Shown one piece after another: positions 2,119 through 63,269 of a stretch of 64,000 bases of DNA; the first letter of the stretch is position 1; each line of letters begins with the position of its first letter. The DNA comes from Chiloscyllium plagiosum (Eukaryota). The notes beneath the pieces were generated by a model. That model had not been told where the DNA came from. It made no database searches and worked only from the letters and a program-made list of their open reading frames with translations. Both the position numbers and the translations under genes were made by a program. Where the stretch lies: contig NC_057732.1 in the NCBI RefSeq assembly GCF_004010195.1, positions 40,962,256-41,026,255 on the forward strand. The letters are read 5' to 3'.

Positions 2119-3050
2119 TTCCCATCACAGATTCTACACTTTAAATACACACGTACCCTCCATAGTCACCAACTCAGTATGAGTTGTTAGCACAGATCAT
2201 GGAGAGGTGGCAACGAGCTGAAGCCAGACATTTCCATGCCCTCACCACTAGAGCTGAGGGAAGAATAGACAGTAATTCTCGATTGTGTCTTCTGTGTTTC
2301 CTAACAGCTGGTCTGAGGGTTCCATTGGTGATGAATGAAAATAATTCACTGATAGCAGTCTCCACAACAGATAGTGAAATGAAGTTTGTGAGGGACAGCA
2401 AAACTCATCTAGTAGTTTAAAAATGAAAATTTGCATAGATATTTTGCAGATAATTTTGGACTGGGCATCAACTTTTCAGTCTACATTAGTCCTTAAGGAT
2501 TGTATTTTATCAGCAGTTGTTGAGGTGGGCAATTGATGTGAGCTAGTCAAATTAACTGCAGCAAACTCAGAACATCATGGAACTATTTGGTGTTAATGAT
2601 GCATCAAAGTAAAGAGGGTAAATAACTTCTAGGCTAGTCCCCCAAAACCTAGCTGGACAAAGACAAGAAAACACGTGGTATAGATGAAATTCTTATGTTA
2701 ATTTTTAATAAAATTGTTGCAATATTAACGAAATTGTTACTTGGTCAATACCTGCCTCATTACAAATCAGCCCAGTGTTCGGTGTCTAGATTGACAACTT
2801 TGTCTTCAAAAAGGAGACCAGTAATGGAAATCAAATCATCATGATGATCTTTCCATAAACAATGGATAATGGATGCTCTGGGAATTGTTTCCAGTGGCTG
2901 TTATAAATTATTCACATTTCATTCTCTTACTGCCTTGTAATCATGGCCATGTGTATATGAGTTTTTCTATTATTTTTCAGGTATTTTGAGTTTGCCACAA
3001 ATTTGAGCTACTGCCAGGAATTCACTAACTCAGCAACTATTGGATCAGTT

Positions 3051-3273
3051 GGGCGAAAGTGAGGACTGCAGATGCTGGAGATTGGAGTTGAAAGTGTGGT
3101 GCTGGAAAAACACAGCAGGTCAGGCAGCATTTCAGGAGCAGGAATTTCAACATTTCAGGCAAAAGCCCTTCATCAGGATCTTCCTGATGAAGGGCTTTTG
3201 CCTGAAACGTCGATTTTCCTGCCCCTCAGATGCTGCTTGACCTGTTGTGCTTTTCCAGCACCACACTCTCAAC
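3051..3273. mobile_element. Fold-back Penelope-derived mini-element with hammerhead core
   Basis: Inverted arms of about 95 bp centred near 3179; CTGATGA-AGGGCTTTTGCCT-GAAACGTC at 3184-3211; direct repeat caactattggat at 3034-3045 and 3270-3281; same sequence as the Penelope termini at 56806 and 59180-59272. Confidence 0.85.
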
Positions 3274-3295
3274 TATTGGATAAATGTAATCAGTG

Positions 3296-4388: not shown

Positions 4389-4870
4389 CCACTGGATGTC
4401 TCAAAACATTTTACTGTCAAATAACTACATATGAAGGGAGGTCACTGTTGTAAGGTAGGAAATGTGGCAGCTGGGTTGCACATAGCACACTCCCACAAAT
4501 AGCAATGTGATAATGACAGATTATCACATTGCTATTTGTGGGAGTGTGCTGTGTGCAACCTAGCTACCACATTTCCTACCTTACAGCAGTGACCTCTCTT
4601 CACATGTAGTTATCTGACATGTTTTTGTGATGTTGATTAAGACATAAACATCAGTTAGGACACAAGGGATAACCCCCTTGCTCTTGTTCAAAATAATAGG
4701 AAGAAATCTTTTATACCCACCCAACTGGGCATTAGTAAACAAATCACCTGAAAGACAGTACTGTATATGTAACTACTAAGCATTCCATCAGCACTTCACT
4801 GGAATGTCAGTCTTGGGTTTTGTACTTAAGTCCTGAGCCCAGAAACAGTGACACAGAGACAATAGTGCTA
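4389..4870 (-). mobile_element. Deu-domain SINE containing an internal inverted duplication
   Basis: SINE body homologous to 11880-12210; 4415-4514 is repeated in inverted orientation at 4520-4619. Confidence 0.75.
4415..4619. repeat. Long inverted repeat (100-bp arms, 5-nt loop)
   Basis: tgtca...gtgataat / gacag / attatcac...tgaca; I count 7 mismatches between the arms, all transitions. Confidence 0.95.
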
Positions 4871-14121: not shown

Positions 14122-14286
14122 AAAAAAACAAAAGAATTGCAACTGTTGGAAATCCGAAAGAAGAACAGAAATTGCTGAAAAACTCAACAGGTCTGGCAGC
14201 ATCTGTGCAGACAGATCAGAGTTAACGTTTCTGGTCCAGTAACCCTTCTTCAGAACTGATGTTTCTCCAGCAATTTCCGTTTTTGT
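14122..14286 (-). mobile_element. Penelope-derived mini-element (third family) with hammerhead core and short inverted end
   Basis: The reverse complement reads ATCAGTT-CTGAAGA-AGGGTTACTGGACCA-GAAACGTT-AACTCTGAT; 14262-14286 inverts 14163-14183. Further decayed copies lie at 19650-19780, 31560-31663, 40775-40855 and 42270-42405. Confidence 0.7.
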
Positions 14287-14826
14287 ACCTTGACTAACAT
14301 AGTTACTTGTCTAAATCTATTGGTGTTGACAAGAACCTTGCCATTAGGTTTGCCAAAAATCCATTTGCTGTACAGTTCAAACATAGTCATTTGTCAGCAA
14401 AGGCCACTAGTAGACCCACAGGTGCTTATTCTCTAGCACTACCGTAGCTACACAGGCACTGACATCCAATGTTGTCTGGAGCCGAGATACATCCAGTCCC
14501 AGCTCCCAGAAGCCTGAAGCCAAATAACTTTACAATAACTTATGATTGATTTAGGTTGAAGGATATGTTCTATTGGTTAACATGTTGGCTAATCCATCAT
14601 TGTAGTTTCGAATAATGGGTCCCTCCCTGCCTCAGGTACCTGATTACTGATGCTGATACAAACCATTCTATCTCAAATCCTGTGAATTTGTTCATCTAGT
14701 TAATAATCAAACAAATGATACATGTAGTTTGACCCTTGCTAGATTCGTACCAGGTGCCAGAGGCCAATCTAAATGATCAGGTGAGCAGTACAGATTGCCA
14801 TAAAAGTGTGACCTTAGGCCTATATC

Positions 14827-27625: not shown

Positions 27626-30318
27626 TCTCAAGGAGCATATATTAGGCAATGAGGGAGTTGGTTGGGAGTCAAACAGTCAGGGTAGGCAGGGACAAGGTAG
27701 GACTAATAAATTAAACTGCATTTATTTCAATGCAAGGGGCCTAACAGGGAAGGCAGATGAACTCAGGGCATGGTTAGGAACATGGAACTGGGATATCATA
27801 GCAATTACTGAAACATGGCTCAGGGATGGGCAGGACTGGCAACTTAAAGTTCCAGGATACAAATGCGACTGGAAGGATAGAAAGGGAGGCAAGAGAGGAG
27901 GGGGAGTGGCATTTTTGATAAGGGGTAGCATTACAGCTATGCTGAGGGAGGATATTCCCGGAAATACATCCAGGGAAGTTATTTAGGTGAAACGGAGAAA
28001 TAAGAAAGGGATGATAACCTTATTGGGATTGTATTATAGACCCCTTAATAGTCAGAGGGAAATTGAGAAACAAACTTGTAAGGAGGTCTCAGCTATCTGT
28101 AAGAATAATAGGGTGGTTATGGTAGGGGATTTAACTTTCCAAACATAGACTGGGACTGCCATAGTGTTAAGGGTTTAGATGGAGAGGAATTTGTTAAGTG
28201 TATACAAGAAAATTTTCTGATTTAGTATGTGGATGCACCTACTAGAGAAGGTGCAAAACTTGACCTACTCTTGGGAAATAAGGCAGGGCAGGTGACTGAG
28301 GTGTCAGTGGGGGAGCACTTTGGGGCCAGCGACCATAATTCTATTAGATTTAAAATAGTGATGGAAAAGGATAGATCAGAATTGGAGAAAGGCCAATTTT
28401 GATGATATTAGGCAAGAACATTTGAAAGCTGATTGGGGGCAGATTTTCGCAGGCAAAGGGACGGCTGGAAAATAGGAAGCCTTCAGAAATGAGATAACGA
28501 GAATCCAGAGAAAAGATATTCCTGTTAGGGTGAAAGGAAAGGCTGGTAAGTATAGGGAATGCTGGATGACAAAAGAAATTGAGGGTTTGGTTAAGAAAAA
28601 GAAGGAAGCATATGTAAAGTATAGACAGGATAGATCGAGTGAACCCTTAGAAGAGTATAAAGGAAGTAGGAGTATACTTAAGAAGGAAATCAGGAGGGCA
28701 AAAAGGGGCCATGAGATAGTTTTGGCAAATAGAATTAAGGCGAATCCAAAGAGTTTTTACAAATACATAAAGGACAAAAAGGTAACTGGGGAGAGAATAG
28801 GGTCCCCCAAAGATCAGCAAGGCGGCCTTTGTGTGGAGCTGCAGAAAATGGGGGAGATACTAAATGAGTATTTTGCATCAGTATTTACTGTGGAAAAGGA
28901 TATGGAAGATACAGACTGTAGGGAAATAGATGGTGACACCTTGCAAAATGTCCATATTACAGAGAAGGAAGTGCTGGATGTCTTGAAACGGGTAAAGGTG
29001 GGTAAATCCCCAGGACCTGACTAGGTGTACCCTAGAACTCTGTGGGAAGCTAGAGAAGTGATAGCTGCGCCTCTGGCTGAGATATTTGTATCATCGATAG
29101 TCACAGGTGAGGTGCCGGAAGACTGGAGGTTGGCTAACGTGGTGCCACTTTTTAAAAAGGGTGGTAAGGACAAGCCATGGAACTATAGACCAGTGAGCCT
29201 GACCTCAGTGGTGGGCAAGTTGTTGGAGGGAATCCTGAGAAATGGGATGTACATGTATTTGGAAAGGCAAGGACTGATTAGGGATAGTCAACATGGCTTT
29301 GTGTGTGGGAAATCATGTCTCACAAACTTGATTGAGTTTTTTGAAGAAGTAACAAAGAGGATTGGTGAGGGCAGAGCAGTAGATGTGATCAATATGGACT
29401 TCAGTAAGGCGTTCGACAAGGTTCCCCATGGGAGACTGGTTAGCAAGGTTAGATCTCATGGAATACAAGGAGAAGTAGCCATTTGGATACAGAACTGGCT
29501 CAAAGGTAGAAGACAGAGGGTGGTGGTAGAGGGTTGTTTTTCAGACTGGATGCCTGTGACCAGTGGAGTGCCACAAGGATCGGTGCTGGTTCCTCTCCTT
29601 TTTGTCATTTACATAAATGATTTGGATGCGAGCATAAGAGGTACAGTTAGTAAGTTTGCAGATGACACCAAAATTGGAGGTGCACTGGCCGCGAAGATGG
29701 GTTACCTCAGATTACAATAGGATGTTGACCAGATGGGCCAATGGGCTGAGAAGTGCCAGATGGAGTTTAATTCAGATAAATGNNNNNNNNNNNNNNNNNN
29801 NNNNNNNNNNNNNNNNNNNNNNNNNNNNNNNNNNNNNNNNNNNNNNNNNNNNNNNNNNNNNNNNNNNNNNNNNNNNNNNNNNNNNNNNNNNNNNNNNNNN
29901 NNNNNNNNNNNNNNNNNNNNGACCGTCGGAGACTGAGGGGTGACCTTATAGAAGTTTACAAAATTATGAGGGGCATGGATAGGGTAAATAGGCAAAGTCT
30001 TTTCCCTGGGGTCGGGGAGTCCAGAGCTAGAGGGCATAGGTTTAGGGTGAGAGGGGAAAGATATAAAAGAGACCTACAGGGCAACCTTTTCACACAGAGC
30101 GTAGTACGTGTTTGGAATGAGCTGCCAGAGGAAGTGGTGGAGGCTGGTACAATTGCAACATTTAAGAGGCAAATGGATGGGTATATGAATAGAAAGGGTT
30201 TGGAGCGATATGGACCGGGTGCTGGCAGGTGGGACTAGATTCAGTTGGGATATCTGGGTGGCATGGATGGGTTGGACTGAAGGGTCTATTGCCATGCTGT
30301 ACATCTCTATGACTCTAA
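27625..30318 (+). pseudogene. CR1 (HER1-like) LINE, near-complete ORF2 (APE endonuclease + reverse transcriptase), disrupted by stops and frameshifts
   Basis: CIYFNARGL, DIIAITETWL, RGGGVA, KSPGPD, NYRPVSLTSVVGK, QHGF, DFSKAFDKVPH, GVPQGSVL, KFADD and WNELPEEVVEAG, followed by the 3' UTR and tail. Confidence 0.95.
29783..29920. other. Assembly gap (N run)
   Basis: 138 N. Confidence 1.
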
Positions 30319-31228: not shown

Positions 31229-31321
31229 GCCCTGATGAATGCCTTATGGCTGAAACATCGATTCTCCTGCTCCTCGGATGCTGTCTGACCTGCTGTGATT
31301 GTCCAGCACCACACTCTTGAG
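31229..31321 (+). mobile_element. Penelope terminal fragment with degenerate hammerhead core
   Basis: ctgatgaatgccttatggctgaaacatcgattctcctgctcc...; flanked by the direct repeat gtgggaacaaa. Confidence 0.75.
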
Positions 31322-31754
31322 TGGGAACAAAAGGACAGGAATGGGGTATTCAGAATAGTTTGAGGGTTACTGAGAAGTCAGTTTTAGAAAATTGGACAAA
31401 GGTCATTAGAGGAGAAGGTTTCCACTTTTAAGCTGCTCGTCAGTCAAGTACTTCAGAGCTTCTTTGCTCTGCTCCTTCCCAAAAAAGGTGTTAAGGAGCA
31501 ATTGTAATCAGTTAGGACTCAGGAGATGCTCTGGCAACCAATAGGTGTAGCTAAAGTCAAAAACAAACACAGAGAATGTTGGAGAAACTTAATGCATCTG
31601 GCAACATCCATGGAGAGAAAAACAGAGTTAAACTTTCGAGTCTAGTGGGACATTTTTCAGAACTACTACTTAGAAAACGCCGTGGTAGCTGTGGTTTTTT
31701 GGAAGAGACCTTTCTTTCATTAATACATTAGTGGTGGGTAGGTTTTTGGAGGGG

Positions 31755-35047: not shown

Positions 35048-36208
35048 AAGACCATAAGACATAGGATCAGAAATTAGGCCATTCAGCCCATTGAGTCTGC
35101 TCCGCCATTCAATCATGGCTGATAAGTTTCTCAACCCCATTCTTCCGCTTTCTCCCCATAACCGTTGATCCCCTTGATACTCAAAAACCTATCTGTCTCA
35201 GTCTTACATATAGTCAATGACCAGGCCTCCATAGCATTTTGTATCAATGAATTCCATAGATTCACCACTCTCTAGTTGAAGAAATTTCTCCTTATTTCCA
35301 TTCTAAAAGGTTTTACCTTTATTCTAAGGCTGTGTCCTCGGGTCCTAGTCTCTCCTATCAATGGAAACATTTTCCCAACATCTACTCTGTCCATACCATT
35401 CACTATTCTGTATGTTTCAATTAGATTTCCCAATTGAGTACTAAAAAGTCCTCAAACGTTCCTCACACGTTAAGCTTTTCATTCCTGGGACCATTCTCAT
35501 GAAACTCCTTGTACGGGTTCCAGGGCCAGTACATCCTGCCTAAGATATGAGGCCAAAAACTACTCACAATACTCCAAATGTAGTCTGACCAGAGCTTTAC
35601 AGCACCTCAGAATACATCCCTGCTTTTATATTCAAGTCCTCTCAAAATAAATGCCATTATTGCATTTGCCTTCCTAACTACTGACTCAACCTGCAAGTTT
35701 ACCTTGAGAGAATCCTGGACTAGAATTACCAAGTCTCTTTGAATTTAATACTTCTGAATTTTCTCCCCATTTAGAAAATATGCCTCTACTCTTCCTACCA
35801 AAGTGCATGACCTCACATTTGCCCATGGTGTACTCCATCTGCCACTTCTTTGCCCACTCTCCTAACCTGTCCAAATCCTTCTGCAACCTCTCTGCCTCCT
35901 CAATGCTATCTGTTCCTCTATCTATCGTTGTATCATCTGCAAACTTAGCCAGAATGCCCTCAGTTCCTTCATCTACATCGTTAATGTATAAAGTGAAAAG
36001 TTGTGGTTCCAATACAGAACCTTGCGGAACACCATTTGTCACCGGCTGCCATCCTGAGAAAGCACCCTTTTATCCCCACTCTCTGCTTTCTGCCAGACAG
36101 CCAGGCTTCTATTCATGCTTGCATCTTGCCTCTGACACCATGGGCCCTTATCTTATTCAGTAGCCTCCTGAGTAGGACCTTGTCAAAGGCCTTGTTGAAG
36201 TCCAGGTT
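35048..36208 (-). mobile_element. CR1 LINE, RT through 3' end
   Basis: ORF 35686-36042 reads GVPQGSVLEPQLFTLYIND...KFADDT...LQKDLDRLGEWAKKWQM; taagaccataagacata tail. Confidence 0.9.
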
Positions 36209-43160: not shown

Positions 43161-43164
43161 TATA

Positions 43165-43292
43165 TTCCTGATGAAGGGTTCTTGCCCGATATGTCAATTC
43201 TCCTGCTCCTAGGATGCTGCCTGACCTGTTGTGCTTTTCCAGCACCATACTCTCGACTCTGACCTTCAGTATCTGTAGTCCTCACTTCCTCC
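43165..43292 (+). mobile_element. Penelope 3' terminal fragment with mutated hammerhead core
   Basis: ctgatgaagggttcttgcccgatatgtc; flanked by the direct repeats ccaatattatatatt and ccaatatcatatatt. Confidence 0.8.
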
Positions 43293-44239
43293 CAATATCA
43301 TATATTGTTCACTATTTTGTGATACAGATAATATTTACTACATATCCAGGTAATTTATTGTCTGCAATGATTGGAGTCACTGTGGTAAGATAAGGTGCCG
43401 CTTACGTCCCAGCTCTACTACGACTTTAAAGAATGGAAGGCTAAATGGTTATGATGAAGAGAATGAGGAGATGGCAGGAAAGTCAGTCAACAAAATATAT
43501 GGGTTTAAAATAGTTGCTGAAATACCAAAAAGAAGAAAATGAGAATTTATTTAGTGTAGCTCATTGCTGTTATCTGAGGTATCTGGCCTGAAATAACAGT
43601 GGAAGTAGTAGCAATAATAATTTGAAAGGGACATTGGATAATTTGAAAATGTAAAATATTCAGGGGAAAGAGCAGGGAATTAGAATTCATTCAACAGTTA
43701 TTTCAAAGAGCTGACTTAGGCACAAAGGGTTGAATGGCCTCCCTTTGTGCTCTGTAATTCTATGACTGGCCCTGGGACTAATACATTTGAAAAGTTCTCT
43801 TTCATGATTACTGAATTGCCTTTTTTAAATTAACTGTCCATTCAATACCATCTTACCCTCATAAGAACACTATATGCTAGACATTAGGAGACATCATAGA
43901 GCTTGCCTCAGTTGTAATCTACCGTACTTTCCTTGTTCTTTTATTGATTGCTCTAAACTCGATCTTAGGTTTCACTGCAATTGTTACTTATTGATAATAT
44001 AATTAGATCCAGACAAATACATGCCTTTTCCATCCATAGGCCTCCTGCAGATCCCACCTCAACCCATTAATAGCCGATTCCCATGCTCTTGTCCTGCCTT
44101 TAGACATTATGAACTCAATAGCTTTTATTAAAAGCTTGTATGTGAGAATATGAAAGGAACTGAGAAAGGTAATTAATAAGTGTCCATGAACATTGATCAC
44201 GTTGGTGTAAAATTCACATACTAAGTGCTCATAAAAGAT

Positions 44240-47900: not shown

Positions 47901-48429
47901 GCCAAAAATACTTACCTCAACTCAAAGAGGACTATTGCAAGTGAATTTCTTCAGGAGTGTGCTTTTCTCTCGACGCCAGTGAAATAACTCTACATAGACT
48001 GGTATCTCATCAGTAAGTCACCCTTTAGTTACACATGGAGAGTCCTTGACACTGAACCAGCTTTCTCAGAGTGAACAGAACCTCTGACACTCTATATCTG
48101 TCAGCCAGGGCTTCCTGATTGGAGCAGATTAACAGCCCCAGTCAAAGAACTCATATTCTATGGCTGACCTCATTAGAATCACCACAGAAACATTGAATGA
48201 TTTCTTTGATTAAGGATCCATATTCTTTGCTCATGAATTCCAATTATTTCTAGCTGTTTTGAAATCCCAAAAAACTCACGCTTAGCCAAGAACCTCACAT
48301 TGGGCAACGTTCGCCTCAATAAACATAGACATTTTCAGTTAAAAAAGAACATGCGTTACAGTGTATTTTGTGATAAAAAAAATTTTCATCTAATATGAAA
48401 TTTCACTGCCAAGTGTCTGACTCTATTTG

Positions 48430-48632
48430 GAGGAGAAAGTGAGGTCTGCAGATGCTGGAGATCAGAGCTGAAAATGTGTTGCTGGAAAAGCGAAGCAGGC
48501 CAGGCAGCATCCAGGGAACAGGAGAATCGACGTTTCGGGCATGTTTCCTGAAGAAGGGCTTATGCCCGAAACGTCGATTCCCCTGTTCCCTGGATGCTGC
48601 CTGGCCTGCTGCGCTTTTCCAGCAACACATTT
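48430..48632. mobile_element. Young fold-back Penelope mini-element with intact hammerhead core
   Basis: 14-bp TSD TCTGACTCTATTTG (48416-48429, 48633-48646); inverted arms; CTGAAGA-A-GGGC-TTAT-GCCC-GAAACGTC at 48548-48575. Confidence 0.9.
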
Positions 48633-48719
48633 TCTGACTCTATTTGATGTGGAGAGAATGGTCATAGTTAGGAAAAAGCAGAAGGCAAGAAAATTCTGGT
48701 CCACCAGTCCTCCTAACAC

Positions 48720-51754: not shown

Positions 51755-53830
51755 GGTGAACAGGGAGGTGCAAAGATGGGATGTCTTCTTTTCCCAGGAC
51801 CAATAGTAGAGGCCACAACATCAGACCATACCAGCTTGGTCTGACCCTAGCTGCCATCTGCTGGTGCCTGATGTTCAACATGGAAGTCCTTTGGTACCCA
51901 TTCTGACCTCCACATCGAGGATTCATGACTTCCACCTTGGATGGCGTAATAGTCAGCTGCATAAATATGAGGCAAGATGTAGAACTAATAATGTTGTTAA
52001 CAAGCAAACATGCCTCCCAATACACAACTCACTGCTGCCCAGAGAGAATCTTGCCTCGATGCCTGTATCTGTTAAAAGACACAGTGAGTTGTTTCCAACC
52101 TGACTTCTTACATGATTCTGCCAAATTTTCCACCATAGCCAATATTATTCAGGCCCATTTAGGATTCCATCCTGTCTTTGAATCCTCATGACCATTTCAA
52201 TGGAGGATGTAACCAGGGAAAGAATGGCCAAATATACCAATCAAATACATTTATGCAGCAATATTTCTCAGTTCGGTAATAAGCACAGACAGTAAAGTTT
52301 ACTAATATAAAGTAAAAAGTGAACTGTCTGCCCAGATAAAGATTGAGGCCCAGAGGCTTGGTCTTACCTCATCTGGTTTTCTCAGGTTTCTGAATGGATG
52401 ATTTTCTTGCCTTCGCTTCCCTTGATCCCATCTTTCCCAAAAGTGAGTGAACATGTATCTTTCCATGGCATACGGAACCTTCTTGGGATCAATGCTATGG
52501 TAATCTTCAGTGGGAATTATGTCTAAATACCTGAGAGAAAATGTCAGGGGTTTTGATTTATTTCTGCTACACAATTAATGGAAACATTAAAATTGACATG
52601 TTCACACCCAAAAGCTGGAATCCCACCAGACTAACGAGTGCTAGCCCTCTCCCTTTCTCTCATAGATGGGTTTAATTAACCTGTTCACATGTTACCTTTG
52701 AAGCAGATGAGACTTCAACCCAGGCTGCCTGGCTCAGAGGCAGGGACATTACGAATGCATCATAACAAACTTCCTTCTCGCTTTTAAAGTTGGTAAATGA
52801 TCCATCCAACCTGGATATTAGGGCCAATGTGAATAACATCTGTCCTCAGAATGATTGCTTTGTAAATATTCTTGAAAAGTGGAACAAGATGCAGGTTTGG
52901 ACTAAAGTCTCTTAGATGTAAGGAAATACTCAAATAACTATATTTTCATTGCAGAAAAGTAGACTTAGAGGGATTTGATCCAGATTTGTGAAACTAATGG
53001 CAATGTTGGAAGATGAGTAACTTTAACATTTAAAGCAATCTAGGATCAATAGTTTTTTGTTAGATGATGGTATCAAGGAATTTGAAGCAAAGAAAATCAA
53101 ATCAAGTTGAGGTACAGATCAGTTATGATCTAACCAAGTGGATTTATTGAGTGAACTGCTTCCTCCTGTACCTATGCCTATTCAACTAAAAGCCAAATGC
53201 TGAGATTTTATATTTTAGAACTCCTGTTATAGATGGGATTGGAGAAGCAAAAGTCTGGCAATCTTCCATTCTGAGACTTAACTGAAGTGGAGCTTTCATT
53301 GCAAAAATCCAATACCTCCAGTATTTAAATTTCCAACTAATGAAATTAATTGGCTGAAAATTGTGGTTTGGAAGGGCAGGACGTTATAAAACATGCTGAA
53401 TAGAAAATCCCAGCATCAATTAATAGAACATCAATTTACCTGATGTAAAACCTGGAAGAAAGTTAATTTTTTTTTTCCACAGTTTGGAATGCATAGAACA
53501 GTTTCAAACAAACAAACTAATAGCACATCAATTTACACCAATAACAAAAAGTTCTGGAGAAACACCCAGGAATAACTATAGATGAAGATAATTAATTTGT
53601 GTGGCATAACAGGCCCTGGTATGTACACAGGCAGGTTTTGTGAGTGAGGTTCAGCACCAAAAATACTCCAATAATGAGCACAGTGTATTCCACATACTCA
53701 TGATGGTCACACTGGTACAAGACCTAATACATTTTGAAGCAGTGTTTCTGTTACTTGGATTGAACAGAGAGAGAATTGTGACATAACCAAGTGAAAACCA
53801 GCAACACTGTTGTTACATCTCTGGAAATAT

Positions 53831-53980
53831 AGCTGAAAATGTGTTGCTGGAAAAGCGCAGCAGGTCAGGCAGCATCCAGGGAACAGGAGAATCGACGTTT
53901 CGGGCATAAGCCCTTCTTCAGCCCTTCCAGCAACACATTTTCAGCTCTGATCTCCAGCATCTGCAGACCTCACTTTCTCC
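53831..53980. mobile_element. Young fold-back Penelope mini-element, hammerhead core on the minus strand
   Basis: TSD TCTCTGGAAATAT (53818-53830, 53981-53993); the reverse complement of 53894-53921 is CTGAAGAAGGGCTTATGCCCGAAACGTC. Confidence 0.9.
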
Positions 53981-54360
53981 TCTCTGGAAATATATCCTTA
54001 TATGACACCGTGGAGGGTAACTGTAAACTAATCTAAAGTAAGATCAAGCTGGATGTAGTACAGACAGATAATCAGATCTTGTTTAGTTGATGTCCAGCAA
54101 ATAAGGTTCAGGTTACCCTAGTTTCTCCAGGAAAGGTATTTGGTCATTGCGGAAAAGAGGTGCTTAAAGAAGAACATCATCAAAGGGTCCGAGTAAAAAA
54201 TCCTAGCTGCCCTTGAGGCTATAGCCACCTCTAAATTCCCTCCAATGTAGAGTAAACTAGAATTATAACAATTTAATATTGACTATTTTCTTGCAATTCA
54301 AAAATTGCTAATATTTAGATTCATAAGTGGGTATTTTTTAATGATGTTTGCAAATATTAG

Positions 54361-54570
54361 TGATGTGGAGGTACCGATGTTGGACTAATGTGGGCAAGGT
54401 CAAAAGTAACATGACACCAGGTTATAGTCCAAAAGGGTTATTTGAAATCACAAGCTTTCAGAGTGCTGACCTGACCTGATACTTCACCTGACAAAGGAGC
54501 AGGGATCTGAAGGCTTTTGATTTCAAATAAACCTATTGAACTATAAAAAGTGGTGTGTATGCTTTCTGAC
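54361..54570. mobile_element. Fold-back Penelope-derived mini-element (fourth family)
   Basis: Arms tatagtccaaaagggttatttgaaatcacaagc and gcttttgatttcaaataaacctattgaactata; degenerate core CTGACAA-AGGAGCAGGGATCT-GAAGGCTT; direct repeat tttgcaaata at 54347 and 54571. Confidence 0.65.
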
Positions 54571-57066
54571 TTTGCAAATACTAACTAAAACATTTCAATT
54601 CCTTGAAGGATTTGGGGATCTGCTAGAAGTACCTGTTGTATGCTTCCAACTCCATTGTTAAGTTGTCTTCGTAATCCAACTGTCCTTTTTGAAGGTTCCT
54701 GTGAAATGCATCAATATGGGGTTACAAAGGTGAGGCATTAGGCATGCCAATTCATAATAGCTCATATCTACAACCAAAATTTTGGACTACAGTTCTTTAC
54801 ACGAAGAAGGGTAAACACATTGGAATGGGTAGAGTAGAGGAGGCAGAAGTCCAGGAATTGTGCCGGAAATGGATGATGTATCAGAGAGGAATATTATTGC
54901 ATGTATGGACTATGACAGACCTCATGACTTCCCTCACCCTTATCCACCTTCTGGTCTGGCACTGTTGAGATCCAAGCAAAGGACATGGAAATGATAAAAG
55001 TCAGTCATAGGCTGAATGGTCTCTTTTAGTTTTGTTAAATACTGTCATATCTGTGCTGGTTCTTTAAAAAAAGTCAAATAGTCTCAATCCCTGCTTTTCA
55101 CAAAAGCCCTACAAACCTTGCCTTTTCAAATCTGCATTCACTCTGATTTGAAAGTTGCGAATGAATGTGTTTCCAAAACCCTTTCAAAAATAGAATTTAC
55201 ATTTATTTATATAGCATTGTTCATTAACTCAACTTTCAAGATTTTTGCAGCCAAGAAAATTCATTTATTGATGTGTAGCCACAGATACAATATAGGACAT
55301 GCAAAATTACACAGTGAGTTCCCATTAACAACAATGTGACAATGACCAGATAATATTTTCTTCAGTGATGTTGATAAGCAATAAGTATTGGACAGAATAT
55401 CAGTGATAAATTATTTTGTGTTTTATGAGTTTATTCATGGGATATAACCATCACTGATTAGGCCAGAATTTATCACACATCCCCAATTGCTCTTGAAAGT
55501 GTTGTGATTTGCTGTCTTCTCAATCTGCTGCAGTATATATGGGTTAAGTGGCCAACAGTATTGTTGTAAATGGGGTTCCAGGATTTTGACCCAACCACAA
55601 TGAAGGAACTGCAATAGACTGCCCCATCAGGATGGTGTGTGGAATGAAGGGAAACGTGCAGGTGGTAGCAGTCCCATACACCTACTGCCCTTGTCCTCCT
55701 AGGTGGTGAAGCTCACAGGTTTCAAAGGTGCTGTTGAAGGAGCTTTGCTCTTCTTTTCTTCAAAATAGTGCCAGGGATAATAAAGATATAAGAACTTAAA
55801 CACATCTCTCAATGACCGCTTTACATGGAGATATAGTGGAGGCTTCAATAGTGACCTTTCAGGTATGACTGGAGTCAGGGAGGGTCTCAGAGGACTGGAA
55901 AATTGATAATGAACCCCCCCCCCCTCCCCCCCCAGTTTAAGAAGGGAGCAAAGCAAAAGATGGGAAATTATAGGCTGATTAGCCTGACCTCAGTTGTTGG
56001 TAAGATTTTGGAGTCCATTATGAAGGATGAGATGTCCGAATACTTGGAAATGCATGGTAAAATAGGGCAAAGTCAGCATGATTCCATCAAGGGGAGATCA
56101 TGCCTGACGTATCTGTTGGAATATTTTGAAGAGCTAATGAGCAGGTTAGACCAAGAAGAGCCAATCGATGTTATCAATCTGGACTTCCAGAAGGCCTTTG
56201 AAAAGGTGCCGCACAGTAGGCTGCTGTGTGAGATAAGGGCCTGTGTGTTAGAGGCCAGGTACTAGCACAGATAGAGGATTGGCTGTCTGGCAGAAGCAGA
56301 GAGTGGGGATGAAAGGGTCCTTCTCAGGATGGAAACCCATGGCTAATGATGTTCCACAAGGGCCGGTATTCAGAACAAAACTTTTCACTGTATACATTAA
56401 TGATCTGAATGAAGGAACTGAGGGCATACTGACTACATTTGCAGATGCTACAAATATAGGTGGAGGGGCAGGTAGTATTGAGGAGGTGGGGGAGGCTGCA
56501 GAAAGATTTATTCAGGTTAGGAGAGTGGGCAAAGAAGTAGCACTTGAAATATAACGTGGGAAAGTGTAAAGTCATGTATTTTCGCAGGAAGGATAGAAGC
56601 ATGGACTATTTTCTAAATGGGGAGAAAATTCAGAAATCTAAATGCAAAGAGACTTCAGAGTCATAGTCTAGGATTCTTTTAAGGTAAACTTGCAGGTTGA
56701 ATCAGCAGTGAGGAAGGCAAAAACAATGTTGTCTTTCATAGAGTCATAGAAATGTATAGCATGAAAACAGACCCTTTGGCCCAACTCATCCACACCGACC
56801 ACATAGGCGAAAGTGAGGACTACAGATGCTGGAGATTAGAGTCAAGAGTGTGGTGGTGGAAAAGCACAGCAGGTCAGGGAGCATCTGAGGAGCAGGAAAA
56901 TCGACATTTCAAGCAAACGCCCTTAATCAGGAATTAGGTTGGGAGCCTCGGGGTGGAGAGATAAATGGGAGGGGGTGGGGCTGGGGGAAGATAGCTGAGA
57001 GTGCAATAAGTGGATGGAGGTGGGGGTAATGGTGTTGGTCGGAGGGGAGGGTGGAGCTCCTCAGGT

Positions 57067-57463
57067 NNNNNNNNNNNNNNNNNNNNNNNNNNNNNNNNNN
57101 NNNNNNNNNNNNNNNNNNNNNNNNNNNNNNNNNNNNNNNNNNNNNNNNNNNNNNNNNNNNNNNNNNNNNNNNNNNNNNNNNNNNNNNNNNNNNNNNNNNN
57201 NNNNNNNNNNNNNNNNNNNNNNNNNNNNNNNNNNNNNNNNNNNNNNNNNNNNNNNNNNNNNNNNNNNNNNNNNNNNNNNNNNNNNNNNNNNNNNNNNNNN
57301 NNNNNNNNNNNNNNNNNNNNNNNNNNNNNNNNNNNNNNNNNNNNNNNNNNNNNNNNNNNNNNNNNNNNNNNNNNNNNNNNNNNNNNNNNNNNNNNNNNNN
57401 NNNNNNNNNNNNNNNNNNNNNNNNNNNNNNNNNNNNNNNNNNNNNNNNNNNNNNNNNNNNNNN
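57067..57463. other. Assembly gap (N run)
   Basis: 397 N. Confidence 1.
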
Positions 57464-58095
57464 GTATGCTTTCCTTTATTGGTCAGAGTATTGAGTACAG
57501 GAGTTGGGAGGTCATGTTGTGGCTGTACAGGACATTGGTTAGGCCACTGTTGGAATATTGTGTGCAATTCTGGTCTCCTTCCAATCGGAAAGATGTTGTG
57601 AAACTTGAAAGGATTCAGAAAAGATTTACAAGGATATTGCCAGGGTTGGAGGATTTGAGCTATAGGGAGAGGCTGAACAGGTTGAGCTGATTTCCCTGGA
57701 GCGTCGGAGGCTGAGGGGTGACCTTATAGAGGTTTACAAAATTATGAGGGGCATGGATAGGATAAATAGACAAAGTCTTTTCTCTGAGGTCGGGAGTCCA
57801 GAGCTAGAGGGCATAGGTTTAGGGTGAGAGGGGAAAGATATAAAAGAGACCTAGGGGCAACTTTTCCACGCAGAGGGTGGTACATGTATGGAATGAGCTG
57901 CCAGAGGATGTGGTGGAGGCTGGTACAATTGCAGCATTTAAGAGACATTTGGATGGGTATATGAATAGGAAGGGTTTGGAGGGATATGGGCTGGGTGCTG
58001 GCATGTGGGACTAGATTGGGTTGGGATATCTGGTCGGCATGGATGGGTTAGACCGAAGGGTCTGTTTCCATGCTGTACATCTCTATGACTCTATG
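57464..58095 (+). mobile_element. CR1 (HER1-like) 3' fragment lying inside the Penelope element
   Basis: MLSFIGQSIEYRSWEVMLWLYRTLVRPLLEYCVQFWSP..., with 3' UTR and ctatgactctatg tail. Confidence 0.9.
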
Positions 58096-60792
58096 TTCTC
58101 TGAAGCACTCTGCGAGTGGGTGTCCAGTCTCCCCAGTGTAGCGGCGATCACATCAGGAGCAACGGATACAGTAAATGACGCTTGGAAGTGCAGGTGAAAC
58201 TTTGATGGATGTGGAAGGCCCCTTTGAGGCTTTGGACAGAGGTGAGGGGGGAGGTGTGGGTGCAGGTTTTGCAATTCATGCGGTGGCAGGGGAAGGTGCC
58301 AGGAGAGGAGGGTGGGTTGTTGGTGGGCTTGGACCTGACAAGGCAGTTGCAGAGGTATGGTCTTTATGAAAAGTGGATAGGGGTAAGGAGGGAAATATAT
58401 GTCTGGTCGTGAGGTCTGTTTGTAGGTGGTGGAAATGATGGAGGATGATGTGATGTATACGGACCTTGGTGGGGTGGAAGGTGAGAACCAGGAGGGTTCA
58501 GTCCTTGTTGCGGTTGGAGGGGTGGGGTTCAAGGGCAGATGTGCAGGAAGTGTATGAAATACGCTGGAGGGGATCTTCAACCACGTGGGAGGGGAAATTG
58601 TGGTCTTTGAAGAAGGAGGCCATCTGGTGTTCTGTGGTGGAACTGGTCCTTTTGGGAGCAGATGCGGTGGAGGCGGAGGAATTGGGAATAAGGGATAGCA
58701 GTTTTGCAGGAGGCAGAGTGGGAGGAGGTGTAATCCAGGTAGCTGTGGGAGTCAGTGGGTTTGTAGAAAATGTCAGTTTTGAGTCAGTCACTGTTGGTGG
58801 AGATGGAGAGGTCCAGGAAGGAGAGGGAGGTGTCGGAGATGGTCCAGATGAATTTAAGGTCGGGGTGGAATGTGTTGGTGAAGTTGATGAACTGTTCAAT
58901 CTCCTCGTGGGAGCATGAGGTGGTGCCAATGCAGTCATCAATGTGGCGGAGAAAAAGGTGGGGAGTGGTGCCGGTGTAACTCCGGAAGATAGACTTTTCC
59001 ATGTAGCCAACATAGAGACAGGCATACCTGTCCATCTTCCTTCCCACCTAATTGCTCCACCCTCCCCTCTGATCTATCACCATTATCCCCACCTCCATTC
59101 ATCTATTGCTCTCGTAGCTACCTTGCCCCCAGTTCCACCCCCTCCCATTTATCTCGCCACCCCCCGAGGCTCCCAGCTCATTCCTGATGAAGGGCTTTTG
59201 CCTGAAACATCAATTTTCCAGATACTCGGATGCTGCCTGACCCGCTGTGCTTTTCCAGCACCACACTCTCGACCCATGCTGACCACATATCCTAACCTAA
59301 TCTAGTCTCATTTGCCAGCACTTGGCCCATATCCCTCCAAACCCTTCCTATTCATATACCTATCCAGATGCCTTTTCAATGTTGTAATTGTATCAGCCTC
59401 CACCACTTCCTCTAGAAGCTCATTCCATACATGCTCTGTGTGAAAAAGTTGCTCCTTAGGTCCCTTTTATACCTTTCCCCCCTTAATCCTAAAACTATGA
59501 CCTGTAGTTCTGGACTCCCCCACCTCAGGGAAAATACCTTGTCTATTTATTCCATCCATGCCCGCTATAAGGTCGCCCCTCTATAAGGTCACCCCTCAGT
59601 CTCTGACGCTCCAGGGAAAACAGCCCCAGCCTATTTGGCCTCTCCCTATAGCTCAAATCCTTCAACCCTGCAACATCCTTGTAAATCTTTTCTAACCCTT
59701 TCAAGTTTCACAATAGTCTTCCAATAGGAAGGAGACCAGAATTGTACACAATATTTCAAAAGTGGCCTAACCAATGTCCTGTATAGTCGCAACACGACCT
59801 CCCAACTCCTGTACTCAATACTCTGACCAATAAATGAAAGCAAACCAAATGCCTTCTTTACTATCTTATCTACCTGCGACTCCACTTTCAAGGAACTATG
59901 AACCTGCATACCAAGGTCTCTTTGTTCAGCAACACTCTCCAGGACCTTACCATTAAGTGTATAAGTCCTGCTAAGGTTTGCTTTACCAAAATGCAGCAGC
60001 TCACATTTATCTAAATTTGAACTCCATCTGCCAGTCCTCGGCCCATTTGCCCATCTGGTCAAGATCCCGTTTTACTCTAAGGTAAAAGTCTTCGCTGTCT
60101 ACTACACCTCCAATTTTGGTGTCATCTGCAAACTTACTCACTATACTTCCTATGTTCATATCCAAATCATATGTATAAATGACAAAAAGCAGTGGACCCA
60201 GCACCATTCCTTGTGGTACACCACTGGTCACAGGCATCCAGTCTGAAAAGCAACCCTCCACCACCACCCTCTGTCTCTCATCTCGAGAGGACTAGAATAT
60301 AAAAGCAAGGATGTACTTCTGAGGCTTTATAAGGCTCTGTTCAAACCACATTTAAAGTACTGTGAGCAATTTTAGGCCCCATACCTCAGGAACGATGCAC
60401 TGGCCCTGGAGCGGATCCAGAGAAAGTTCACAAGATAGGTCCCAGGAAGACTTAACATATGAGGAACATTTGAGGACTCTGGGACTATACTCGATGGAGT
60501 TTAGAAGGATGAGGAGGGATTGGATTGAAACTTACAGAATACTGAACAGCCTGGACAGAGTGGACATTGAGAAGATGTTTCCATTAGCAGAAGAGACAAA
60601 GATCGAGCTTTAGAGTAAAGGGAAGACTGTTTAGAATGGAGAGTGGTGAACCTGTGGAAATCATTGCCACAGAAGGTTGTGGAGGCCAGATCATTGAGTA
60701 TATTTAAAACAGAGATCGATAACTTCTTGATTGCCAAGGGGATCAAAGATTACAGGGAGAAAGTGGGAAAATGGGGTTTTGAAACCTATCAG

Positions 60793-61006
60793 AGCTGAAA
60801 ATGTGTTGCTGGAAAAGCGCAGCAGGTCGGGCAGCATCCAAGGAGCAGGAGAATCGACGTTTCGGGTATGAGTCCTCATTCCTGAAGAAGGGCTTACGCC
60901 CGAAATGTCAATTCTCCTGTTCCTTGGATGCTGCCTGACCTGCTGCGCTTTTCCAGCAACACATTTTCAGCTCTGATCTCCAGCATCTGCAGCCCTCACT
61001 TTCTCC
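60793..61006. mobile_element. Fold-back Penelope mini-element
   Basis: 15-bp TSD TTTGAAACCTATCAG (60778-60792, 61007-61021); core CTGAAGAAGGGCTTACGCCCGAAATGTC at about 60882-60909. Confidence 0.9.
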
Positions 61007-62375
61007 TTTGAAACCTATCAGCCATGATTGAATGGCAGAGCAGACTCGATGGGCCAAATGGCCTAATTTCTGCTCTTGTGTTTTATGATCTTGTAATCTA
61101 ATAGCATTAAAGTCCTTTGAATGGAAATAAAACATTTTATGTTTAAATACAATGCTGAGATTTTCACCCCAGGAAGGTTTCTGGTCCATTCCTTAATCTG
61201 TATCTAATCACAAAGGTTAAACAGCTATACCAGCTCACATTGCCCCTTAGTTAAAGAGAATTCTTCTTCAAATTACTGCACAAGGGACCTCACTCTACGC
61301 AAGTGATCACAGGTGAGGACAGAAGTGGGTTTGGCTACAAACATTCACTAAGTTCAAAATTGAGTAAAGTATCAGTGGACCACTATCATCAAAAAAAGGG
61401 AGTATAGGTGGGAAAATGGAGAATATTATGGACATTTTAATAGATGTGAATATGCATAGACATGAAACGCATTTGCACAATTAAAGTACAGAAACACTTT
61501 TCTCAACTAGGAGGAAAGAAGAAAAGTCTGAAATCCAAAAGTAAAAATAAAAGCATTCCAGAAAATGGGCAACAAACTAATCAATACTAAATAAAAACAG
61601 ATTAATTATTCATTGTCAGTTCAGACTTTGGCATCAGGCATACACCAGCCATCTGCACCATCATGGCACATCTCTGAAGCACTTACATTATGGTTTTGCA
61701 CTTCTGTGCTGCACTTTGAAGCATACTAGTACTTAGCACTGTAATTCTGCTGCTAGGACAAGTCAGGCATTCATCTCATAGACTCAACAAGGTGCAATTT
61801 ATATCTCCTTGCTCACACTCTTGCTGCTCACTCACATTATGCCTGCTTGGATGCTCACAGCATCACAGCTTTTCCTTGTCTTGCCTTACCTTGCCTTTTT
61901 GTGCCATCTCAGCTAGAGATCGTACTTTTGTCGTGCTTGTGCAGACACAAGCCAGGCAGCTGGTTGTTGTCAGCAATGATCAGTCAAATGGGAAGACATG
62001 TTGTTGTACTTCACTGTGCTTCATCAATCTATGCCTGCAGTATGAACCATCAATTTACATAGCAAACACAGAATGTGCTTCAACCAAATAGGCTTGTCTC
62101 AACGTCTAATGGAATTGTTCTCAGTCAAGACAAGGAAAATAGCCCTCAGTCACAGGGTTCCAGCACAGTAAAGGGGAACATCCACTCTCAGTCCATGGGG
62201 TTGGACATGGTCATTCAGCTATTTTGGGCTGTCAAGTTCACAGGGTTTATGTCATAAAAATCAGAGGAATCAGGCACTGTCATCCTATGGGTTAAGTGCT
62301 GACCAGATCATAGAGTCATGCTAAGTCAGTGGGAGAGCTGCATACAACAGTCAGGAGTCTGCTCACTCATCCTTT

Positions 62376-62505
62376 CTGGATCAGTGGTGCTGGAAGAGCA
62401 CAGCAATTCAGGCAGCATCCGAGGACAGGCTGCCTGAATTGCTGTGCTCTTCCAGCACCACTGATCCAGAATCTGGTTTCCAGCATCTGCAGTCATTGTT
62501 TTTAC
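62376..62505. mobile_element. Fold-back Penelope mini-element lacking the hammerhead
   Basis: 14-bp TSD CTCACTCATCCTTT (62362-62375, 62506-62519); perfect inverted arms of about 42 bp, ctggatcagtggtgctggaagagcacagcaattcaggcagc. Confidence 0.85.
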
Positions 62506-63269
62506 CTCACTCATCCTTTGGGCTGTCCATCCAGATTGGGAAAGGGGATGAGCCACGATCAATCCTGGAGGTCTGTCCACTCAAAATCAAGAAGGTGTTA
62601 TTAGGGGTCAACTATGGGAATTTGAGTTTGCATTCTGAGATGCAAAGAGGATAACAACTTTGAAAGGGGTTGCAACATATAAAGGGAAGATGATACAGCA
62701 TGTGAGGGAAAGAGGAAATGTGATGGAGGGTCATCATCAGTTGGCACTACCTTGATTTCGATGATGGGACATTGTACTATGTCTGGTAAGACACTGTGGT
62801 ATGCCTGGGGTTGAGATGGTAAAGTAAGGAAGTGAACAGTTAAATAAATAAATTAGATTGGAATGTGGAGGTAAAGCCAGTGGTTCAAATCTCAGTCTTA
62901 ACCGGTGCTGTAGCTCAATGACCCTTTCCCAACACTCATTTCCTCCTGGTCCATTGGTTAGTTATTTCTCAGGGTTGCAAATATACTCATCCCATTGAAT
63001 CATATTCAATGTTACAGGCAATTTAACAATGGGATTAGTGTATTTGCAGTCAGAGAAGGATGCATAAAGCAGCACTGCTCAATCTCAGTGTCTGAATGGA
63101 CTATTCCAGGAACGGAATCGATTCAAAACCTTTATAAGATTCATAACAAAATATTACAAAAGAAGGGAAGTGTAAGAATCAAGACAAGATAGATCAATAG
63201 ATCAACAGTTGAGGAGGGGTGGACACCTTCAAAGTGATGTGCAAAAGAAACAAAAGTGATGTGAGAAAA

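Follow-up and report, generated by a model that had tools for sequence, protein, structure and literature searches.

Fold-back insertions carrying minimal hammerheads in Chiloscyllium plagiosum are probably paired short copies of the front end of a Neptune-type Penelope element

Short palindromic insertions with minimal hammerhead ribozymes at their centres are dispersed through the genome of Chiloscyllium plagiosum, and each of these fold-backs probably represents the front end of a Neptune-type autonomous Penelope-like element (PLE) in two short copies, primed at both nicks of the target, copied from one uncut RNA and joined where that RNA has its 5′ end. In the mechanism proposed here, the target would be opened by staggered nicks, each of which likely primes a DNA copy, and both copies would likely be taken from a single uncut RNA at two fixed internal start sites. 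The reverse transcriptase (RT)-endonuclease would work as a dimer whose two sites initiate at +126 and at about +90, respectively, where C3 of the hammerhead core is counted as +1 and the predicted cleavage bond lies between +28 and +29. The copies would run off the RNA 5′ end at an A at −3, the putative transcription start, following which the two cDNA ends would be joined head to head by an end-joining process (for which we take polymerase theta to be a candidate) that trims or pads them. The ribozyme would occupy the centre of the fold-back because the transcript opens with it, and the fold-backs, being copied from RNA that the ribozyme has not cut, would be dead ends once inserted.

The analysis started from a window of 64,000 nucleotides (contig NC_057732.1, positions 40,962,256 to 41,026,255), in which a sequence-only reading had pointed to palindromic inserts at 3051, 48430, 53831, 60793 and 62376, each with a target-site duplication of 12–15 bp. 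All five are present there as inverted repeats, with duplications of 12, 14, 14, 15 and 14 bp and with 224, 203, 149, 214 and 130 bp between them, respectively, and the three hammerhead cores described as intact, in the first three inserts, are indeed found (Table 1). In the focal insert at 48430, stem I of the hammerhead is down to two pairs because the A at −3 is missing; the core of the insert at 60793 has a CpG change in stem III, and the insert at 62376 has no hammerhead core at all. An inverted stretch at about 58083-59073 adjoins the longer forward-strand copy, and by eye its frames resemble a PLE coding region. The window also contains a 205-bp near-perfect palindrome (93%) at 4415-4619 with no match to the PLE end, a pair of 41-nt inverted arms, 43 nt apart and 88% complementary, at 54422-54546, and pieces of a LINE-type reverse transcriptase frame at 28476-30238, 35708-36163 and 57010-57723, which are presumably CR1/L2-like.

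Table 1. Hammerhead-bearing and related PLE insertions of the window (window positions; element positions count from C3 of the core as +1)
Feature	Position	Strand	Remarks
Left target-site duplication, focal insert	48416..48429	.	14 bp, identical to 48633-48646
Focal inverted arm	48430..48543	-	element about +126/+128 (tailed 3′ end) to +14/+15
Tail of focal insert	48430..48465	-	~35 nt, on inverted arm only
Focal head-to-head junction	48543..48545	.	one extra base
Focal forward arm	48545..48632	+	from element −2 to tail-less 3′ end at about +85
Minimal type I hammerhead core, focal insert	48548..48575	+	stem II 48556-48559/48564-48567
Predicted cleavage bond, focal hammerhead	between 48575 and 48576
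Right target-site duplication, focal insert	48633..48646	.	14 bp
Older-subfamily fold-back	3034..3281		tailed arm (-) to −1, tail-less arm (+) from −2; core 3184-3211 (+); 12-bp duplication 3034-3045/3270-3281; 5 additional bases precede element
Fold-back	53818..53994		tail-less arm (-) to +1, tailed arm (+) from +70; core 53921-53894 (-); 14-bp duplication 53818-53831/53981-53994
Fold-back	60778..61021		tail-less arm (-), tailed arm (+) from about −8; core 60882-60909; 15-bp duplication 60778-60792/61007-61021
Fold-back of another subfamily	62362..62519		arms end at +35 and +49; 14-bp duplication 62362-62375/62506-62519
Single-arm stub	43164..43294	+	−3 to tailed end; 15-bp duplication; no fold-back, 5′ end the same
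Single-arm stub	31231..31322	+	0 to tail-less end; 11-bp duplication
Longer copy	56803..57054	-	at least 126 nt upstream of core, tailed end; meets assembly gap
Longer copy	59017..59273	+	upstream pseudo-LTR (pLTR) and tail-less end
Hammerhead stub of more distant family	14172..14290	-	begins at equivalent −3 base after short inverted arm

The sample consisted of 16 blocks of 100 kb, taken at round coordinates on 16 contigs (one of them beside the window), and the window itself, amounting to 1,626,662 non-N bases of a 3.56-Gb genome. This 1.63-Mb sample holds 340 arms and 65 head-to-head pairs, five of these in the window, and no tail-to-tail pair; with about 40 fold-backs per Mb (1–9 per 100-kb block), extrapolation gives some 1.4e5 genome-wide, so that the high density noticed in the window is real but belongs to the whole genome and not to this locus. 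The whole insert measures 127–270 bp in 63 of the 65 fold-backs, and duplications of at least 10 bp (lengths 11–16 bp, mode 14–15) flank 51 of them, as opposed to none of 65 mismatched flank pairs. The arms have two kinds of 3′ end, a tailed one situated at about +126 (or +120, in a single family) and a tail-less one at about +85 to +95. Once ten fold-backs had been left out of this classification (five with an arm below 80% identity, five with an unclassifiable end), 53 of the remaining 55 were found to combine one tailed with one tail-less end (p 4e-14), one of the other two having two tailed and one two tail-less ends. In the in vitro system of the Anolis Poseidon element (Frangieh et al. 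2024, PMC11167929), as there described, both target strands are nicked and extended by a predicted dimer with uncut RNA as the main substrate, and two RT start sites bound the tail, the tail-less site being one of them.

The source of the stubs was reached by an outward walk from the best 30 matches, which led to coding copies linked to the same pLTR. The coding copy L154:1736-3301 matches RVT_1 above the Pfam cut-off (E 1.3e-8) and GIY-YIG at E 2e-4 with 21.9 bits, 0.7 bit under the cut-off of 22.6. The parent frame of 522 residues unites RT, a CxxC linker and, at the C terminus, GIY-YIG in a single ORF, and a CX2-5CxxC linker, which PMC8557442 describes as common to the Neptune and Nematis clades, was read ahead of GIY-YIG in the translations of L154 and L170. 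Judged by its sequence, the parent is a Neptune-type autonomous Penelope element, a label taken from this linker and from occurrence in a vertebrate. Its ORF starts near +166, ~40 nt past the tailed end; two copies combined give an element unit of ~3.3 kb, with the direct or inverted pLTRs and the 30–40-bp tail at one end by which endonuclease-positive PLEs are recognized, and a direct pLTR runs past +126 into a short leader and the ORF at 5 of 30 loci (chosen upstream). Longer insertions (L007, L019) end at the same two sites as the stubs, and because they and the coding copies use the same ends, the stubs can be regarded as the shortest products of the coding element. Two further long insertions, L029 and L030, have an inverted part that begins inside the coding region and not at a fixed end, like LINE-1 twin priming, and L270 shows an 18-nt tandem expansion within the low-complexity N-terminal region of the ORF.

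Both arms of the fold-backs correspond to the −3 to +126 segment of the element, and their inner ends peak at −4 to +4. Among 226 arms, the stop rate per nucleotide is 0.062 at −4 to +4, 0.049 at −11 to −5 (where 21 arms end, upstream of the proposed start) and 0.023 at +5 to +11. Of 98 young arms, 42 of the 66 reaching −4 to +4 stop there, with 2.3 expected. An arm ends at −11 to +10 in 49 of 60 fold-backs, and unpaired stubs with duplications have the same stop point, which indicates that the stop is independent of folding back. The sequence-only reading had proposed that turn points cluster at or next to the ribozyme and that the ribozyme or its cleavage sets them, and had suggested a histogram of breakpoints relative to the GUC site. 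Such a histogram confirms the clustering, which lies at the 5′ edge of the motif, ~30 nt away from the cleavage bond; at that bond there is no pile-up, with 1 of 86 young arms stopping at +26 to +32 (2.3 expected). A turn at a template end created by self-cleavage would be in keeping with U6 sequences joined at +29, described below, and with one fold-back in which both arms end near +29 to +32. Over all arms, the cleavage region stops 6 of 187, a hazard of 0.0046 per nt that equals background, and 41 of 60 fold-backs still contain the complete core, a segment situated 5′ of the cut, making this explanation scarcely credible.

A different way to place the stop at the motif, and a structural version of what the sequence-only reading proposed, is a roadblock: irrespective of the sequence upstream, RT would halt on clearing stem I's 5′ strand in the folded and possibly protein-bound hammerhead. 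Stem I has 4 bp and its 5′ base does coincide with the peak; the A-U pair there, at −3, is kept in six family groups, and the anole PLE ribozyme is reported to require protein for cutting (PMC11167929). Against this, the U6-fused fold-back L306 turns within U6 without having a core, the insert at 62376 turns without one as well, and of 18 young arms that pass −11, 17 continue beyond −50, one stopping at −50 to −12. The same DNA harbours a related, Poseidon-like family, represented in the sample by 17 copies (L147:1325-1366 is an example), in which stem II is longer and a TATAAAT lies upstream. This family lacks the stop, as 14 of its 17 copies read through the ribozyme and continue upstream, unlike the Neptune-type families. 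The roadblock would also leave the promoter-like motifs at −31 unexplained, and we consider it unlikely.

The run-off reading has the stop at an RNA end, and the 5′ edge of the ribozyme is likely a transcription start, because a motif at TATA position lies 31 bases upstream and the sequence around the edge is initiator-like. In 22 of the 29 reference copies, the motif YTTATYT sits 29–35 nt upstream of the A at −3, with three matches elsewhere and a diverging spacer. The motif is non-canonical in young families; in a distant family, two of three copies carry TATAAAT or CATAAAT at −31. In most families −3 is an A after two pyrimidines, an initiator-like context, and since −3 is also the 5′ base of stem I, the start site and a stop at the ribozyme edge coincide. 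A Drosophila-type downstream promoter element was not found by eye. The transcription of Drosophila virilis Penelope is described as beginning inside its upstream pLTR (PMC2377424). At 16 of 30 loci (chosen for the ORF start), a piece with the ORF start is fused straight to a pLTR beginning at about −6 to +6, with a G just ahead of the −3 A in five of the 16, as if RT had reached the template end and then jumped. Direct partial tandems have variable unit length and are joined near −3. Short direct tandems of this kind, in which a 180–420-nt leader and ORF start abut a pLTR beginning near −3 (L253, L256, L258-L260, L264-L268, L271, L273, L275, L276, L279, L280), in some cases with an inverted arm in addition, have the appearance of template jumps starting at the RNA 5′ end.

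Evidence for a cap is weak: a G stands at −4 in 13 of 41 free ends compared with a background of 21% (p 0.06), and the unselected sample has six G and five A at this base. A poly(A) single-cell RNA run gave 2487 reads, of which 95% continue into unrelated sequence, with no start point common to many molecules, and a further run gave no reads. A 3′ splice site ~25 nt upstream of the core was also considered and was rejected, there being no pile-up of ends (1 of 18 at −50 to −12) and no AG kept across families.

The motif itself is a genuine minimal type I hammerhead within ultra-short PLE insertions, as had been claimed. A descriptor search, one of the checks proposed earlier, returned 88 motifs in 1.63 Mb and none in reversed sequence; the other, a search of the window against Rfam, yielded no hammerhead at E<=5. 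The minimal form was originally defined with a relaxed descriptor, according to PMC4209133. Matches of the window to Rfam miRNA families were under their cut-offs and were dismissed as hairpin artefacts. The core boxes, the extra base before stem II, G10.1-C11.1 and the palindromic 15.2-16.2 are all present. Stem I spans four positions and shows compensatory changes across seven family groups, in which pair 1 is C-G, U-A or A-U, pair 2 is U-A or C-G, and pair 3 is U.U, U-A or G-C, the focal family having the U.U mismatch. Among inserted copies, changes in the core (9 of 597) are not significantly rarer than those downstream (74 of 2932; p 0.18) under a filter biased towards intact cores, and CpGs inside the core decay. 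As a monomer, the core region folds into stem II alone and no better than shuffles, as expected of a minimal motif. The RNA of the focal insert is predicted to form one hairpin of −169 kcal/mol with most of the core paired to the inverted arm, and on either strand of a fold-back the antisense arm would be transcribed first, burying the core.

Whether such ribozymes cut in the animal is addressed by fusions to U6. Hammerhead cleavage leaves an RNA with a 5′-hydroxyl end. In LINE-1 chimeras, RtcB is described as joining U6 to 5′-hydroxyl RNA before retrotransposition (PMC6789731). When the flanks of 20 of 48 listed U6 copies were read, two joined the element end (both at +29), two the endonuclease region and 16 other DNA. 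A pattern that allowed any junction within 30 nt gave seven U6-element matches at six loci, all seven at +29, and none in the reversed control. As U6 is fused exactly at the cleavage bond in all of these matches, the ribozyme probably cuts some RNAs in vivo; its activity, which the sequence-only reading had called uncertain on account of a short stem I, has become less so. The published U6/LINE-1 chimeras are alike in that U6 is joined to a 5′-hydroxyl end before RT, and differ in that the junction here is one fixed bond, the ribozyme cut. Other U6 chimeras (L288, L292, L293, L297, L302, L305, L291, L296, L299, L301, L303) continue, by eye, into tRNA-like or SINE-like heads, coding-like DNA or, twice, the PLE endonuclease region.

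Two of the seven matches belong to a single fold-back, L306 (G000:C31:9507225-9507745), in which U6 is fused at +29 on both arms. It has a 13-bp duplication, one tailed and one tail-less arm and no ribozyme core, and its turn lies inside U6, close to the 5′ end of U6, following an internal jump by which 77 nt of U6 are repeated. Because U6 chimeras are a handful among ~1e5 fold-backs, both arms of L306 are best explained by one RNA, and its turn inside U6 implies that the turn follows the RNA 5′ end. In line with one RNA, both arms belong to the same family in 32 of 35 fold-backs, where permutation gives a mean of 13.3, and 13 of 16 young fold-backs have arms of the same haplotype (permutation mean 5.9). 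Conversion of one arm by the other could also produce this concordance, and arm-to-arm identity did not beat the best unrelated arm, the partner ranking first in just 16 of 40.

One template for both arms is also provided by snap-back, in which one cDNA (or an antisense template) self-primes its own copy and the endonuclease trims the tail of one arm at resolution. Antisense-template self-priming and endonuclease resolution have been invoked in print, for head-to-head PLE palindromes in PMC3846280 and for the tail in PMC8557442, and they would account for shared variants, for one tail per insert, for the overlaps of 1–13 nt at 23 of 60 junctions and for L306, a single locus that fits because its short arm is a subset of the long arm. 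Overlaps and short templated fillers are also what points to end joining of the two cDNA ends in the mechanism proposed above. It has to be noted, however, that the tail-less arm reaches further 5′ than the tailed arm by at least 10 nt in 16 of 53 fold-backs (the focal insert among them) and by at least 30 nt in six, which counts against snap-back because a copy cannot contain what its template lacks; later deletion at palindrome centres could mimic such asymmetric arms. The reverse asymmetry occurs in 9 of 53, with neither arm favoured (Wilcoxon p 0.16), and the tail-less site is the end of 45 of 106 unpaired arms in the 1.63-Mb sample and an RT start site in vitro (PMC11167929). Snap-back is accordingly judged improbable, about as much so as the roadblock, and the data favour two primed copies of one sense RNA.

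The sequence-only reading had further suggested a non-autonomous, retrozyme-like class, that is, a family transcribed, self-processed and re-inserted as a unit. The fold-backs have no ORF, carry a hammerhead and are numerous (by the extrapolation above), retrozymes have been argued to derive from pLTRs (bioRxiv 10.64898/2026.07.22.740005), and one distant family, comprising the stub at 14172-14290 of the window and 12 others, begins at about −3 to 0 with unrelated upstream DNA in all 13 copies seen; with no parent seen, that family could be a true non-autonomous one. For the fold-backs the proposal does not hold up. The focal junction was found twice genome-wide and that of the 53.9-kb insert three times, each occurrence having its own duplication and variants, and these independent occurrences of the two tested junctions argue against self-propagation. 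The termini are those of coding copies and do not lie at the cleavage bond, the −31 motif is lost from the stubs, and the ribozyme is buried in the hairpin by the antisense arm made first. Non-LTR retrozymes, as described in PMC7229834 and the same preprint, are likewise short, non-coding and pLTR-related with a type I hammerhead, but are direct tandems processed at the ribozyme into circles, whereas the fold-backs are inverted with private junctions. Neither direct tandem units each with a hammerhead nor fixed ends set by cleavage were found in them, and a retrozyme-like origin is very unlikely.

Several elements of this picture are already known, namely minimal hammerheads in pLTRs with opposite-strand pairs, inverted PLE ends and the one-sided tail. 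Endonuclease-positive PLEs are described as having an adjacent inverted 5′-truncated copy and an optional 30–40-bp tail at one end (PMC8557442, PMC3846280; inverted ends and one-sided tail also in PMC8969392). Their units share with the insertions described here the head-to-head inverted ends, the one-sided tail, the long duplications and a coding parent with RT, CxxC and GIY-YIG; the present inserts differ from the published units in being reduced to the two ends and in carrying exactly one tailed arm in nearly every classifiable case. Minimal hammerheads in pLTRs, mostly dispersed and in Schistosoma also in opposite-strand pairs 100–700 bp apart, are the subject of PMC4209133, and they agree with ours in the core, the extra base before stem II, G10.1-C11.1, the palindromic 15.2-16.2 and the short stem I, stem II being 4 bp here. 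That account gives no in vivo evidence and proposes circular templates, whereas in the present data the ends lie at the motif's 5′ edge and the cut bond is marked by fused U6. Anolis Poseidon, which has the same two internal RT start sites bounding the tail, is of a different clade; its ORF starts inside the ribozyme and not ~135 nt past the cut bond as here, and the main text consulted (PMC11167929) describes neither head-to-head stubs nor a 5′ run-off site. In LINE-1 twin priming both target strands prime as well, and the two pieces do not overlap, whereas the fold-back arms copy the same stretch from fixed sites. A literature search (older reviews, repeat databases and supplements aside) found no run-off stubs, one-tail rule or U6 at the cut, and nothing relevant on Penelope strong-stop DNA, twin-primed palindromes, U6/RtcB, sharks or cryo-EM since 2024.

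Taken together, these results allow a wider and more tentative reading, which we hold to be possible though not probable. Reverse transcription of a PLE would begin close to the 5′ end of the element's own capped RNA, and one RNA would give strong-stop DNA on both strands of the target. A long insertion would need a jump from that 5′ end to a downstream position, which builds the pseudo-LTR; the RNA end onto which it leads may be one that the hammerhead has made. About 140,000 hairpins would then preserve this step, and minimal hammerheads cutting in the germ line would be recorded by the U6 fusions. Since most of these motifs are buried, decaying stubs, caution is warranted in counting them as ribozyme loci or retrozymes. 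The genome holds about 1e5 natural products with sharp rules, namely a tailed and a tail-less arm, a stop at −3 and U6 at +29, which bear on PLE integration, on inverted ends, on the one-sided tail and on whether weak minimal hammerheads cut in animals, and which make these questions directly testable with the existing in vitro system.
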